Shown: piece by piece, positions 29,154 to 46,470 of the stretch
Layout of the letters: every line of letters begins with the position of its first letter
How positions within the stretch are numbered: position 1 is the first letter of the stretch
Notes under the pieces: model-generated
What the model was told of the DNA's origin: nothing
The model's database searches: none
Seen by the model: the letters and a program-made list of their open reading frames with translations, nothing else
Made by a program: the position numbers and the translations under genes
Virus record (IMG/VR): IMGVR_UViG_3300045999_011735
Span: 32,001 to 96,000 of that record
Length of the DNA stretch: 64,000 nucleotides
From: a virus
Strand: one strand, 5' to 3'

Positions 29154-31403
29154 TTACTCGTCGTTTTTATTATCCAAAAATTCATCGGTACTCTCCGCCA
29201 CACGATATTTCATGTTCATATTATGTCTGAGTTCATCTTCTTCTAATATACGTTCCTTATTTGCTTCCCACCATTCCCTATAGCTTGGTGATGTTAACAT
29301 GCTTCGCTCATGTTGTTCATTATCCCATTGCTTTGCGTTTGGGTCCGTTTCATTGCTATAAACTGCCATATACTATGTTTAATTTATTCATCAATATCAT
29401 TTCCGTCCATATCAAAATCCTCATACGTTTCACATACCTCTCTCAATTCTTGCCCTAGTTCCGATTTGACATCTATTGTTCCTTCATTATCACTTGTGAT
29501 GAACCAAAAATCTACTATTTCATCCTCTTGACATTGCACATAAAAAACATCGTCTGGTCCTTCAATAGTCCAATGAATTGTTCTGTAAATTACCTTGTCG
29601 GTTACTTGATAATCCATAACTTTTATTTTAATTATTTAATACGTTAAATATAAGAAAAAAACTTGGTCACTCAAAATATCCATTTTGTTGATGCCATACT
29701 CCGTTTATTTGTATCTCAATTGTGTAATCGCCGTTGTATTTTCTATTTTCGGGATGTGTTAACCATACCTTAACACCTTGTTCCCAAATTTTTAATTCAT
29801 CCCCGTCCCACGCTTGCTCAATGGTTTCTAGTTGTTGCAAATCGCGTTTGCTGTAACTAATTGTATTCATAACTAATTTATTTAATTACCTTAAACATAC
29901 ACACAAAAAACTTGGTTTACAAATGATTACCCGTAAGCATATTTTGCTTAGTTGTAACCATTAGTGGTGTTTCCCTTGTTCCATACACCCAATGATATAA
30001 CAAATCATTTACCAATTCTGCATAAAATTCTGGATCTGCCTTGATATCTTCAAGCGTTGATTCAAATGCATTTTCAATTTGCTTTGACCTGTCTACATAG
30101 TTAATATCAAGGTAAGGATTGTACCTTTTGTCTGGTGCAAATAGTGGTGTTGTTGTCATAACCTATTTATTTAATTACCTTAAAATACTTCTTTACATCA
30201 TTATATTCCCACCAACCATCATTACATTCACCTTTCCACTCACCTTCAATACAAATAAAATCCCCATCTTCATCTTTTTCCCACACATCACCTACAACCA
30301 ACAAATGAGAAAAAGAACTCTGAAATTCCTTCTCATCTATCATTCCTATACCACTCAAATCCTCGGACACATAGTAAGCGTTTTTTACTACTTTGATTTT
30401 CATATGTTTTAATTTTATGAATTAAATATACAAACAAAAATTATGTTTCCAAGCGTATATACGTATGTTTGTATTGATGTGTTGTACTGCAAAAGCTCTG
30501 CTATTTTTTATTTAACAGAGCCGTAAACCATCAAGTTTTCAATAACACACATATACGACCCTTCTCTATTAAAACCATGTGCCTCGTACCATAACAACAA
30601 ATCTTCAATTGATTCACATTCGTTTATTTCATCTTTCATTCCGTTGATATACGGAACAGGGTCATTACCTTCATCGCTATGAAAATCGTTGAGCCATTCT
30701 GCTTCACTTTTGATAACGATTTGTTTCAAATCATTTAGTGTTATAGCCATAACCTTGATTTAATTACATATAAATTTGTTCTGCTATGTATTCGGCTAAG
30801 TCATCATCATAAATCAATTCGTCCTTGTCGTTAAACAATTCCCAATCGATGATTTTACCTCTATCATCTAGATACTCCTTGTATGTGTATCTGTTTTCTT
30901 CTACTATTACTTCGTAAATAGTAGTTGTTGTTGTTAGTTGTGATAGTATTTGCATAACCTTTTATTTAGTTAAATGTATAAACAAAAACTGCGTTACCCA
31001 ATTTTGAAATCGGTGTATTGTTCTGCTAGTTCGATTACTTCACCTTCATCTAGTACCATTACACCACCTTCGTCATATAACCCCCAAATGCCATTGTTTA
31101 CAAATATCCATTTGTCTTCATGTTGTTGAAATTCTGCTCCGTATTTTTTTAATGCTTTCAAAGCACCATTTAAAATCATATTCATAACTTTTATTTTATT
31201 GTAACGTTATAGTTTGTATCCATCATTTTAAAATGTACAACAAATTCCTTTGGACTAAAAATTAATTCCCAACCACTACACCAACCCCACTCTCCTTCAA
31301 CATACACTGATCCTTCTTCTGTTTTGATGAGTTTAACTGCATCACCTTGCATAGCAACAACATTTTCATTGTCTGCTATTCCTTTAATACATTCAAATTT
31401 CAT
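29154..31403 (-). CDS. Run of nine short acidic hypothetical early ORFs (29154-29369, 29384-29617, 29667-29870, 29917-30159, 30167-30403, 30508-30750, 30764-30955, 30994-31185, 31191-31403)
   Basis: Tightly packed 63-80 aa minus-strand ORFs; most start with (A/G)GTTATG and about every second one has the conserved promoter. Confidence 0.6.
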
Positions 31404-31453
31404 AACTTATTTATTTAGTTAAATGTAAAAATAAAAGCTAGGTTTTCCTAGCT

Positions 31454-31861
31454 TCATTCTGGATGTAATTCGTATAGATTTATTGTTTCCTTGGTATTTA
31501 TTTTGTAACACTCCCAATAATCACCATCAAACACATACAAATAATCTACATTGTCATCTTTAAGTAAATCATTAAAATATGCGGTTCGTTTACTTGTATC
31601 TGATTCACCTCTGTCTCGTCCATAGGCTAAACACCATTTTTCGTTGTGTGTAGTTCTATCGTTAAAATCTTGTTTTTCACCGATTTCTTCTGATAAAATA
31701 CTCAAACTACCTAAGTCAAGTAATTGCCTTACTTTGTTAATGTTTTGGTAGTGTTCAGCTAAAATTTTTCCGTTGTGCTGTGGATAACCATCATAGTGAC
31801 AATAAATGTAATCAATGGTTCCATCTGTGTTTCTAACACCAATGTGTGATCTTGTTGCCAT
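31454..31861 (-). CDS. Conserved phage protein (TRS.IG...YCHYDGYP family)
   Basis: MATRSHIG, YIYCHYDGYP, LGSLSIL, AYGRDRGE, DYLYVF. Confidence 0.7.
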   Translation of the reverse strand: MATRSHIGVRNTDGTIDYIYCHYDGYPQHNGKILAEHYQNINKVRQLLDLGSLSILSEEIGEKQDFNDRTTHNEKWCLAYGRDRGESDTSKRTAYFNDLLKDDNVDYLYVFDGDYWECYKINTKETINLYELHPE

Positions 31862-31877
31862 AACCTTTATTTTTTAG

Positions 31878-31975
31878 TAGTCAGGACAGGATTCGAACCT
31901 GTAAATCTTTTCCTTGTGTACTCTAACAATTAAGAGTGTATAAGGTTTTTACGTCTAACATTCCGCCACCTGACT
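31878..31975 (-). ncRNA. tRNA-like RNA lacking a canonical anticodon arm
   Basis: Acceptor AGTCAGG/CCTGACT+A, D arm GCG..CGT, T arm ACAGG-TTCGAAT-CCTGT; 48-nt atypical middle; own promoter at 31990-32015. Confidence 0.75.
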
Positions 31976-32021
31976 ATCTTTTATTTATTTAAATATACAA
32001 ACAAAAATTTGGTTTATCTAA

Positions 32022-32291
32022 TTAATTATCTTCTACATCACCCCAAGAATTGATATAAAACCTATATCCTGCTTCTTCAAGTGCTTTACTAATTTCTCTC
32101 GCAATGTGCCAACGTGGCTCTGTATCATGTACTTCAGGATGTTTTGCTTCTACCTTATCAAGACCCTCATTATAGATCTTTTCAATATCTTCTTTAGTTA
32201 ATCGAGTCTTACCCAAGATCTTTTTCTTGACTGACTTGACCATTGATTCGCAGGCTCGATCACCTGCTGGTGTAAACATTTCGTATGGCAT
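32022..32291 (-). CDS. Hypothetical early protein
   Basis: AAGGTTATG start, own promoter. Confidence 0.55.
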   Translation of the reverse strand: MPYEMFTPAGDRACESMVKSVKKKILGKTRLTKEDIEKIYNEGLDKVEAKHPEVHDTEPRWHIAREISKALEEAGYRFYINSWGDVEDN

Positions 32292-32321
32292 AACCTTTTT
32301 ATTTAATTAAAGATAAAAACT

Positions 32322-32798
32322 TTATTTGGTTTCTTCAAACTTAAACGCATTACGAATAGGACGTCTAAAACCATTATTCCTAATTTTAAAATTACCATTA
32401 TCATAAATAACCCCATCCTTAATAGTTAAAGCGTGTCCCCTTACTAATATAAAATAAGTACCTTTGTTGTGTTTCTGAGAAAATGTTCCTACTGTATATT
32501 GAACTTTCTTGTGGGTATAATCAGGGTTATACAAATCATTAGAAGAAATAGATATAAAATGTTTATTATTTATTTTTACCTCTGCATTTGAAAGGATTGA
32601 TAGTTTAATAGCAGTTAGTGATGTTCCCTCTCGATCAGGTCGTTTTAGATTTTCTTTAACCCATTTGTGTGCTGTTGGATAATCTGTGTCTGCGGCAATA
32701 GCCATTGCTCTAACAACACAATCATTGTTTTCCCATTCAAATCCTGTTTTATCTAAAACAGATGTTGAACTAATTACTTCTGGTTTGTTATTATTCAT
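32322..32798 (-). CDS. Papain/C39-like fold hypothetical protein
   Basis: NDCVVRAMAIA ... GHALTIKDGVIYD (Cys-His-Asp pattern). Confidence 0.5.
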   Translation of the reverse strand: MNNNKPEVISSTSVLDKTGFEWENNDCVVRAMAIAADTDYPTAHKWVKENLKRPDREGTSLTAIKLSILSNAEVKINNKHFISISSNDLYNPDYTHKKVQYTVGTFSQKHNKGTYFILVRGHALTIKDGVIYDNGNFKIRNNGFRRPIRNAFKFEETK

Positions 32799-32852
32799 AA
32801 CCTTTTTTATTTGTATAAATGTACAAACAAAAATTTAGTTTCTAAAAACTAA

Positions 32853-33089
32853 TCACTTCACAATTTCACTATATTTCTTCCAATTAACGGCTCCATATGA
32901 AGCATCTTCAATAGGCATAGCTAACATACATTCATTATCAAATTTACCTATTGCTATAAAACCAAACCCTTCACAAATAAGTGGTATGTAATAGTCATTT
33001 TCCAATAGTTCAAATTCCAAAAGTATATCAAAATCACCTTCAAACCCCATATCATGGAGTTCACAATACTGCTTACTAAAATCAGCCAT
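32853..33089 (-). CDS. Hypothetical protein
   Basis: MADFSKQYC...ICEGFG. Confidence 0.55.
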   Translation of the reverse strand: MADFSKQYCELHDMGFEGDFDILLEFELLENDYYIPLICEGFGFIAIGKFDNECMLAMPIEDASYGAVNWKKYSEIVK

Positions 33090-33100
33090 GTTATGTTATT

Positions 33101-33451
33101 TTATTCATTAACAAACTCTACAGTTGCAGAAATATAATACTGTCCTCCTTGTTTCCCTATAAACCCTGGAGAACAAGGGCAAGTACAACCACATTTTTGT
33201 CTCCAACCCCATTCTTCATTTTTTACTGCTTCATAAACATTAGGAAATTCTTCCTTTAGTTTTTCAATAACAACAGGGATTACTTCTGTTTTCCAAACCT
33301 TAGATGGGCGATCATGTCTGTTAAATAAATTGTCTAGGACAGTTTCATTTTCAGGCCAAATATAAAGTTTGTTTGATCCTTTATACGGTTCGTTTTTTCT
33401 GGTGTGGTACGGTTCGTACTCGGCTTTTAAGCCTTTAATTGTAAATTTCAT
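33101..33451 (-). CDS. Hypothetical protein with GCxCPCSPGF motif
   Basis: WRQKCGCTCPCSPGF; own promoter. Confidence 0.6.
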   Translation of the reverse strand: MKFTIKGLKAEYEPYHTRKNEPYKGSNKLYIWPENETVLDNLFNRHDRPSKVWKTEVIPVVIEKLKEEFPNVYEAVKNEEWGWRQKCGCTCPCSPGFIGKQGGQYYISATVEFVNE

Positions 33452-44980: not shown

Positions 44981-45093
44981 TGGTTGCGGAGAGAGGACTT
45001 GAACCTCCACGCTGCTCAAAGCAGCAGACGCTTGTTTCGCGCCTCATGTCTACCATCGGTAGTCGTACGCCTACTCGCTTTCACCACTCCGCA
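44981..45093 (-). tRNA. Aberrant type II (Leu-like) tRNA with D-loop hairpin insertion and non-canonical anticodon loop
   Basis: TGCGGAG/CTCCGCA+A+CCA, T arm GGAGG-TTCAAGT-CCTCT, variable arm GCTGC/GCAGC, loop GAAACAA without U33. Confidence 0.7.
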
Positions 45094-45107
45094 CATTTAA
45101 TCATAAG

Positions 45108-45193
45108 TACCTGAGGCCGGAGTCGAACCGGCACGGGCATTTCTGCCCAAGAGATTTTAAGTCTCTCTTGTCTACCTATTTCAACACTCAGGT
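45108..45193 (-). tRNA. tRNA-Leu(TAA)
   Basis: AGAGA-CTTAAAA-TCTCT anticodon arm, long variable arm, TTCGACT. Confidence 0.95.
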
Positions 45194-45477: not shown

Positions 45478-45480
45478 TTT

Positions 45481-45557
45481 TGAGGAAAGCAGTAGATGGG
45501 TGCGTGGACAACTGCTTTTATGATTAGCTTTACTAACCTAAGTCCTAATCAACCTCA
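45481..45557 (-). ncRNA. Putative 77-nt three-way-junction RNA within the tRNA array
   Basis: TGAGG/CCTCA, TGATTAG/CTAATCA, AAAGCAGT/ACTGCTTT. Confidence 0.55.
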
Positions 45558-45592
45558 GTGGCGTCAATGCTTGTTTTAGCACCGTCTTCAGG

Positions 45593-46009: not shown

Positions 46010-46086
46010 CTTTTTTCGTTTTTGTTAAAAAATTTAAGCGACCATAAATATATGGTTACTTATTTGGGTTTCCAAATTTAATTTAG

Positions 46087-46470
46087 TGGAGGAGACGGGA
46101 ATCGAACCCGTGTATCCATAAGGAACAATAACACCAGCGTATCACATGCTTAGATCTGCAAGCTGATCAGTAATTGGGGACGCTAGTTTTGGTTAGCGTG
46201 CCTACCACCACCTAATTTTATGAAACTAGGAAAACTAGAGCTATAATACTGAGACTATAGCGGGGTTGCTGTTCTGTTGCAAGGCTATCAGCTGCCCCTT
46301 GCGGATTAGGCTGCTACAGCGTAATCGGCACCTACGAACGCCATTAAGTCGTCGAAGGTCATTGTTGACATTTCGTCATTTATTGGTTGAAAATTTGTTT
46401 AAAGACGACATATCCAAACGTCTGCATGTAGTGGTACCTTCACATTACGGAGCAATACCTGGACTCCCCC
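46087..46470 (-). ncRNA. ssrA: tmRNA; tag (A)DEMSTMTFDDLMAFVGADYAVAA* at 46377-46306
   Basis: GGGGGAG/CTCCTCC acceptor with G3-U wobble and A discriminator, T arm ACGGG-TTCGATT-CCCGT, ATAAAT-GAC resume site, YAVAA-stop. Confidence 0.92.

Follow-up and report, generated by a model that had tools for sequence, protein, structure and literature searches.

tRNA look-alikes are already known in several forms, including tmRNA, the Y RNAs, viral 3' tRNA-like ends and rnaC of phage T4. In the laboratory, the engineered tRNA scaffold of Ponchon and Dardel keeps the acceptor, D and T arms of human tRNA-Lys3 or E. coli tRNA-Met and carries a hairpin for the anticodon stem-loop, and in E. coli such RNAs undergo processing and remain stable (PMC3753655). 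Among natural RNAs, tmRNA (RF00023) combines a tRNA-like acceptor and T-arm domain with other RNA in place of the anticodon arm and is processed by RNase P, but has a G3:U70 pair (alanine identity), pseudoknots and a tag reading frame. The YrlA-type Y RNAs bound by Ro60/Rsr are non-coding and contain a tRNA-like module, but this part is internal and the ends of the RNA make the Ro-binding stem (RF02553; PMC4201824). Plant mitochondrial t-elements are organellar and tRNA-like, lie beside ORFs and are reported to be cut by tRNA-processing enzymes into mRNA ends; they are not described as a family of constant frame and variable insert, and their sequences are unrelated to those considered here (PMC1920247). 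Within its tRNA cluster, phage T4 encodes two small stable RNAs of unknown function that are made together with the tRNAs (AF158101, 70908-71171), the 139-nt rnaC ('species 1') and the 119-nt rnaD ('species 2'). The former has a T arm, CCGGGUUCGAAUCCCGG, at its end and is closed by an acceptor-like helix.

This study focused on a gene for a tRNA-shaped RNA in a T4-like phage from lake water, and the window analysed is a stretch of 64,000 nt (positions 32,001 to 96,000 of IMG/VR record IMGVR_UViG_3300045999_011735). The phage record comprises 115 kb (67% complete by CheckV) with ~31% G+C, and includes baseplate-wedge genes, six tRNAs and a tmRNA. The element is 98 nt long and lies on the minus strand at 31878-31975 (reading from 31975 to 31878), as identified by its fold, the Rfam tRNA model and a model of its family. 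Like the engineered scaffold it keeps the acceptor, D and T arms and has a hairpin where the anticodon stem-loop would be, but it is natural, has a tRNA-Leu-type frame and belongs to a family with hundreds of inserts in uncultured phages, for which processing is predicted. With class II tRNA-Leu (RF00005) it shares the 7-bp acceptor, U8, a 3-bp D stem, the AAU.GGUAGAC loop, the T arm GGUUCGAAUCC and A73, but not the 5-bp anticodon stem, the 7-nt U33 loop or a separate variable arm. Among natural RNAs, the T4 pair and tmRNA come closest to it. Neither T4 RNA is related to it in sequence. A Leu-type D arm is lacking in rnaC, which reaches 17.5 bits with the tRNA-Sec model and is not matched by the tRNA model; moreover, rnaC and rnaD are single genes, whereas the present family consists of a constant frame with a swappable middle. 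Assignment to tmRNA was rejected, position 3:70 being U:A and the 48-nt insert having no reading frame. The sole tmRNA match in the window is at 46084-46470 (minus strand; Rfam, 65.2 bits), a phage tmRNA at the head of the tRNA array, with an ARAGORN-predicted tag ending ...GADYAVAA. A YrlA-type RNA was also rejected, as the ends of the element pair as an acceptor stem and no YrlA match was found there at E values up to 10; no TROVE/Ro60 gene was matched in the 115-kb record (67% complete).

Anatomy and genomic setting of the element

In the MFE fold, the two acceptor strands (31969-31975 and 31879-31885) form seven base pairs, all Watson-Crick (AGUCAGG/CCUGACU), and the 5' strand is followed by U8. 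The D arm (31951-31966) has a 3-bp stem and the loop GAAUGUUAGA, the T arm (31886-31902) a 5-bp stem (ACAGG/CCUGU) and the loop UUCGAAU, and the discriminator A73 (31878) is unpaired. In place of the anticodon and variable arms there is an A-rich insert of 48 nt (31903-31950), made up of AAAAA, a 34-nt hairpin and AAAAGAUUU. The hairpin (31912-31945; CCUU-AUAC-ACUCU-UAAUUGUU-AGAGU-ACAC-AAGG) pairs CCUU with AAGG and ACUCU with AGAGU across a 4x4 internal loop, and its 8-nt apical loop, UAAUUGUU, has no U33. The sequence-only reading had placed the gene correctly, in coordinates and strand, and its description of a perfect acceptor stem, T arm and Leu-like D region, with an interrupted hairpin and A-rich linkers replacing the anticodon and variable arms over 48 nt, agrees with this fold. 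Folding energy is unremarkable for the whole element (z = -1.65), and for the insert alone z is -2.1 against 300 dinucleotide shuffles. The D arm, AAUGUUAGAC, has a layout identical to that of the phage's own tRNA-Leu(UAA) at 45107-45193 (UG-3 bp-AAU.GGUAGAC; class II tRNA-Leu type) and holds A14 and A15, with a U at the position of U48, but one of the two elbow Gs (G18/G19) is missing. The same D-loop variant, AATGTTAGACGT, recurs in the family, in five or more further distinct members whose inserts are unrelated.

The Rfam tRNA model (RF00005) scores the element at 36.3 bits (gathering score 29) and skips the anticodon arm as a 24-nt insertion. Of the features of a decoding tRNA, it has the acceptor stem and the D and T arms and lacks the 5-bp anticodon stem, the 7-nt loop with U33 and the anticodon. 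ARAGORN at default settings calls no tRNA at the element.

Upstream of the element by 13 nt is an early promoter-like 19-mer, TTTTTGTTTGTATATTTAA (31989-32007, minus strand), within which TATATTTA (31990-31997) differs at a single base from TAnnTTTG, the -7 box of Bacteroidota sigma-A. Exact copies of the 19-mer occur at 31989-32007 and 30422-30440, and with up to two mismatches there are six minus-strand matches between 27.8 and 32.8 kb; the two strands together have seven, where 0.54 would be expected. The other minus-strand copies (one exact, four near) precede small early ORFs, and the earlier suggestion that the element has its own early promoter is supported as a prediction. In Flavobacterium, the sigma-A -7 box occupies -12 to -5 relative to the transcription start (PMC9723704), and the usual spacing would put the start of the element's transcript ~9-10 nt before its first base. 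An 18-nt leader-like sequence, TTTAAATAAATAAAAGAT (31976-31993), ends at base -1 and represents a second copy of the usual pre-ATG leader; with a weight matrix built from 56 ORF leaders of the window's early region it scores 6.7, within the top 0.14% of positions, and the true leader at the downstream ATG scores 9.0. Early ORFs between 23000 and 45000 on the minus strand share a strong pre-ATG leader consensus, TAA.TAAATAAAAGGTT-ATG, with no Shine-Dalgarno sequence, which fits Bacteroidota-style translation initiation.

After the element comes a 16-nt spacer, CTAAAAAATAAAGGTT (31862-31877, minus strand), consisting of C74 and then the A-rich translation leader of an early ORF of 135 aa (31454-31861, minus strand). 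The ORF belongs to phrog_1987 (E 8e-32), of unknown function, and has no match in Pfam; at its end, a pattern scan found a terminator-like hairpin and T run (31434-31455, minus strand). The order of parts is thus promoter, leader, tRNA-shaped RNA, leader, ORF and terminator, with the element in the place usually taken by a start codon. It had previously been described as standing alone, 13 kb from the tRNA array. The distance is right, with the array beginning at 45107, but there is no terminator between the element and the ORF 16 nt downstream, and for this reason it is probably the 5' portion of that ORF's early transcript, the two being probably co-transcribed. The insert hairpin was also considered as a plus-strand terminator. 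This was set aside, since all ORFs of at least 100 aa between 28 and 36 kb are on the minus strand and the plus-strand T run is merely the complement of the A-rich linker.

The tRNA array itself contains other unusual sequences. At 44981-45092 (minus strand), 15 nt downstream of tRNA-Leu(UAA), there is a second tRNA-shaped RNA without a usable anticodon, with the acceptor GCGGAG/CUCCGC, the T arm GGAGGUUCAAGUCCUCU, A73 and an encoded CCA, a frame unlike that of the AGTCAGG family. Its D region is expanded, and of its two hairpins one has a GAAACAA loop lacking U33; the MFE is -42 kcal/mol (z = -1.84), and neither ARAGORN nor the Rfam tRNA model called it; its T arm and 3' acceptor strand recur in tRNA-Met(CAT)-like genes of two relatives, L349 and L350. 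Between tRNA-Glu and tRNA-Gln there is a 113-nt spacer (45478-45590, minus strand) that contains no ORF and matches nothing in Rfam; it possibly encodes a further small RNA.

Close relatives differ at this locus. An identical element is present in L320, a metagenome relative with 93% identity in the downstream protein, while in L321 (89%), L324, L327 and all more distant relatives the promoter motif is followed by the leader and the ATG with nothing between, and so the element is gained or lost between close relatives. With the closest element-free relative of the ORF at 89% identity, it is dispensable for that gene. None of these relatives carries a normal tRNA at the locus, which the sequence-only reading had raised as a reason to abandon its proposal. 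The element lies in a ~700-nt tract nearly identical to L320, and the two phages are mosaics: over 31249-33369, segments with 0-5 differences per 100 nt alternate with others at 20-40 per 100 nt (32500-32700, 31200-31500), a pattern that fits cassette-wise recombination among early genes. Selection on the insert was not accepted from the identical L320 copy, as this sits within the near-identical mosaic tract.

A widespread family with a constant frame

The element's ends are those of a large family with the frame AGTCAGG-TG-GCGGAAT(T)GGTAGACGC ... T(A/G)CAGGTTCGAATCCTGT-CCTGACT-A, followed by C. Its 5' half (AGTCAGG-TG-GCGGAAT..GGTAGACGC) has an exact 16-mer in common with the family, and its 3' half (T-ACAGGTTCGAATCCTGT-CCTGACT-A) an exact 24-mer, after which come C and TAAAAA, with no CA. 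IMG/VR was scanned for exact patterns of the 3' half (the 21-mer GGTTCGAATCCTGTCCTGACT), the 5' half (the 16-mer AGTCAGGTGGCGGAAT) and the D arm plus T arm only, and each of the three occurs on at least 120 contigs. Altogether there are at least ~400 distinct elements on at least ~290 contigs; among the matches listed, a contig has up to seven copies, and element length varies continuously from 64 to 196 nt (median 104). In the window's phage, the element is the single gene with this frame: a covariance model (R1) built from 44 family members, with the window copy left out, scores it at 80.1 bits (E = 1e-16), and since the runner-up in the 115-kb record, a tRNA-Arg, reaches only 22.2 bits, there is one copy in this genome.

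The inserts are ~20 to 150 nt long, in a continuous range, and have no common anticodon arm. Similarity clustering of ~620 extracted elements (canonical tRNAs included) gave 483 clusters, 406 of them singletons, and most family inserts have no detectable relative among the extracted elements. The comparison of relatives that the sequence-only reading had proposed, using the constant ends as probes, thus yields at least ~400 members with mostly unrelated inserts. Given a constant frame around hundreds of unrelated inserts, the element is, as judged from sequence comparison, a tRNA mimic and not a decoding tRNA or the product of an isolated decay event, much as had been proposed. ARAGORN calls tRNAs at 31 of 152 family elements, mostly with implausible anticodons. 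A more specific proposal, that the RNA is a decoy for anti-phage tRNA nucleases, does not stand up as stated: decoy function against anticodon nucleases of the PrrC, RloC or PARIS type is unlikely because the element has no anticodon loop, and most family inserts do not resemble one.

In the canonical tRNAs of the carrier phages, the anticodon arm is fixed and the acceptor stem varies, and in the family elements the reverse is seen. The enzymes that process tRNAs recognise shape and not sequence, and processing therefore does not account for the base-for-base constancy of the family's acceptor and T arms, which could reflect spread at the DNA level. Many members are located inside tRNA arrays. 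In four (L152, L156, L192 and L202), an extra ~50-90 nt lies inside the 3' acceptor strand, as CCTGTC[...]GACTAC. Three of these insertions include a GAAA-capped hairpin, and a nested element, mobile or self-cleaving, may be involved. Other RNAs noted were a match to freshwater-1 RNA (RF02979; 70.1 bits, gathering score 72) inside an array of tRNAs and tRNA frames (L016:4124-4186, plus strand), and a group I intron that abuts a phage tmRNA (L009:7609-8193, minus strand).

An ORF starts within 30 nt downstream in 28% of family members, compared to 12% of canonical tRNAs at the same loci and 8% of random positions. The spacing has a mode of 15 nt (21 cases, with nine at 16 nt), and the leaders follow the consensus C(T/A)AAAA.TAAA..TT. 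These ORFs are mostly unrelated, with one recurrent family of 215 aa that has no annotation (phrog_29822; no match in Pfam). In seventeen other members TAnnTTTG occupies precisely -12 to -5, counted from base 1; about 11 of these members form one related group, so that few independent lineages are represented. A perfect Bacteroidota -7 box, TATATTTG, is found at -12 to -5 in L072, L083, L103, L112, L114, L151 and others, and in this group the conserved 215-aa ORF is exactly 30 nt downstream, though the inserts differ.

Cultured phages gave no match to the locus by blastn, and with the element as query only the generic T arms of ordinary tRNAs were matched, no record covering 80% or more. Among 185,579 species genomes, the 3' 21-mer is found in 18 contigs, all from MAGs and none from an isolate, and about half of these are binned as Bacteroidota (Chitinophagia, Sediminibacterium, Flavobacterium, Saprospirales). 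Such rarity, confined to MAG contigs, rules out a copy of a host tRNA or attachment site. Together, the Bacteroidota labels and the -7 box indicate that the hosts of the family are probably freshwater Bacteroidota. No description of the frame was found in the literature searched, Rfam 15 has no model for it and gives only weak tRNA matches, and a 2023 catalogue of phage RNA candidates contains nothing resembling the family (PMC10690425). We found no described natural family that combines a constant tRNA body with hundreds of unrelated inserts.

The inserts themselves offer few clues. For the window's insert, neither blastn against the ~620 extracted elements nor a stem-anchored pattern in IMG/VR found any relative except the identical L320 copy, and its hairpin is without covariation support because there is no independent relative. 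Family inserts as a whole are slightly more structured than control DNA (median folding z -0.46 vs -0.02, p = 3e-6), a modest excess. An antisense role towards the phage's own genome was rejected, the longest complement to the insert being 11 nt where shuffled inserts typically reach 12-13 nt, as was mimicry of a translation leader, since the leader weight matrix does not single out the insert. In a search run without a positive control, no RegA-family match (the repressor-decoy idea) was found in the record, and when the inserts of 12 multi-copy loci were compared with known RNA families, only weak tRNA matches to the frame were returned.

Maturation and competing explanations

The bases flanking the family elements are those expected of working tRNAs. 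At -1, T is present in 78-80% of members and in 67% of 541 canonical tRNAs of the same loci; the corresponding values are 71% and 62% for A at -2, 74% and 64% for A at -4, and 97% and 90% for C74, with the following CA unencoded in both. Position 73 is A in 89% of the family and G in 8%. The element itself, with A-4, A-2, T-1, C74 and no encoded CA, has the pattern of the canonical tRNAs in the same phages. Bacterial RNase P prefers leaders with U at -1 and A at -4. Since the flanks are alike, the enzymes that mature the tRNAs of these phages should also mature the family RNAs. No gene for a CCA-adding enzyme was detected in the 115-kb record (67% complete). A sub-family of ten members has a conserved insert, and in 9 of its 28 predicted pairs both bases have changed with pairing retained; these pairs lie in the D and T stems, the stem at the insert base and an inner insert hairpin, and other family members have alternative acceptor and T stems that are fully compensated. 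There is evidence here of selection at the RNA level, suggesting that the family works as RNA.

We consider it probable, on balance, that the element is transcribed early, excised by RNase P and the 3' tRNA pathway, and persists as a stable, non-decoding RNA that displays a hairpin. Early transcription would start at its own promoter, with the element first in a short transcript shared with the 135-aa ORF. The host's RNase P would make the cut at base 1, and its 3'-end pathway for tRNAs would cleave after A73/C74 and add CCA, leaving a stable RNA of ~100 nt with the upper half and elbow of a tRNA and a 34-nt irregular hairpin, unable to read codons. The same cuts would give the downstream mRNA a short A-rich leader. 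The hairpin would be the working part, binding a host or phage factor as a decoy or aptamer on a tRNA body. We infer the transcription, processing and stability of the element; that the hairpin is the functional part, probably through protein binding, is much less certain, and is suggested by covariation in other inserts and the modest excess of structure. The RNA could be charged with leucine, but this reading does not depend on it. Among the options listed in the sequence-only reading, an RNase P-processed stable carrier for a variable payload seems the best, considering the copies that share the frame, the tRNA-like flanks and the covariation in the sub-family.

Several other explanations can be weighed against this one. 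The frame alone could matter as a cis-acting processing signal, with cuts by RNase P and RNase Z setting the 5' leader or lifetime of the mRNA, the insert being filler and the released RNA having no job. This is how plant mitochondrial t-elements are reported to act (PMC1920247), and the position of the element between promoter and ORF, 16 nt before the ATG, the excess of close downstream ORFs (28% vs 12% and 8%) with their sharp 15-nt mode, and the look of a don't-care region in hypervariable, weakly structured inserts of any length all point the same way. We nevertheless regard it as unlikely, because 72% of members have no close downstream ORF and many are within tRNA arrays, relatives of the ORF have the same promoter-leader arrangement without the element, the downstream ORFs are mutually unrelated, and a sub-family shows compensatory changes in its insert stems. 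It is quite improbable that the RNA is a charged, non-decoding look-alike of tRNA-Leu that sequesters LeuRS or EF-Tu or acts as a non-ribosomal amino-acid donor, with the insert tuning stability or partner. E. coli LeuRS reads A73 together with D-arm and tertiary features and ignores the anticodon, and the class II tRNA-Leu D arm of the element, its A14, A15 and U at the U48 position, and A73 in 89% of the family agree with such a role. The placement of G18/G19 also matters to E. coli LeuRS, and the window copy is short of one of them; G73 occurs in 8% of members, no transferase or synthetase gene was seen adjoining the elements, and hundreds of different inserts would be left unexplained.

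The family might also be a passenger at the DNA level, a tRNA-Leu-derived module that spreads as a mobile pseudogene by recombination at promoter and leader or at its own constant ends. Near relatives differ in its presence (L320 has it; L321, L324, L327 and others do not), two copies of the leader motif bracket it as if it filled a cassette slot, and its ends are base-for-base identical in unrelated phages whereas the acceptor stems of canonical phage tRNAs vary. Even so, a mere passenger appears very unlikely, given the compensatory changes seen in stems of the T, D and acceptor arms and of the inserts, and the retention of an RNase P-type leader and C74 as in working tRNAs; furthermore, no homing endonuclease or transposase was found among eight neighbouring ORFs tested near arrays, two of which are DUF932. 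Lastly, a decoding tRNA whose extra bases are spliced out or read as an oversized anticodon loop is scarcely credible. ARAGORN does offer a tRNA-Lys(CTT) with a 9-nt intron when introns are allowed, and a 4-base anticodon at a relaxed threshold. However, the anticodon stem of the intron-type model consists of five A:U or G:U pairs and clashes with a far more stable hairpin, and the insert lengths across the family, with no shared anticodon arm, are against it. We know of no bacterial mechanism for 9-nt tRNA introns. No RtcB, Rnl1 or other T4-type RNA ligase was found in the 115-kb record (67% complete), and an Rfam scan of the 64-kb window had no group I intron match. Splicing of the insert to restore a normal anticodon, the outcome that the earlier reading had said would count against a mimic, has no credible form.

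Implications for phage biology and annotation

Tools that search for tRNAs miss the genes of this family or give them nonsense anticodons, which distorts the tRNA counts of phage metagenomes and, with them, inferences about codon usage and suppressors. If the family RNAs are processed and stable, as preferred here, then phages long ago reached the 'tRNA scaffold' trick of the laboratory, and the inserts would form an as yet unexploited collection of small functional RNAs from nature. Going further, and only tentatively, the fixed tRNA-Leu body might be an expression and stability platform by which phages of freshwater Bacteroidota maintain a cassette-mobile, fast-turning-over repertoire of aptamer or decoy RNAs. 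Such a platform would hijack RNase P, 3' trimming and CCA addition, and its inserts would be aimed at factors of the host or of rival phages, a possibility that we regard as doubtful. If true, it would be the RNA counterpart of the hypervariable protein cassettes among early genes, and the copy in the window would be an early 'RNA effector'. Should this reading of a natural scaffold carrying a library of RNA effectors hold, the family would be categorically new rather than another tRNA mimic.
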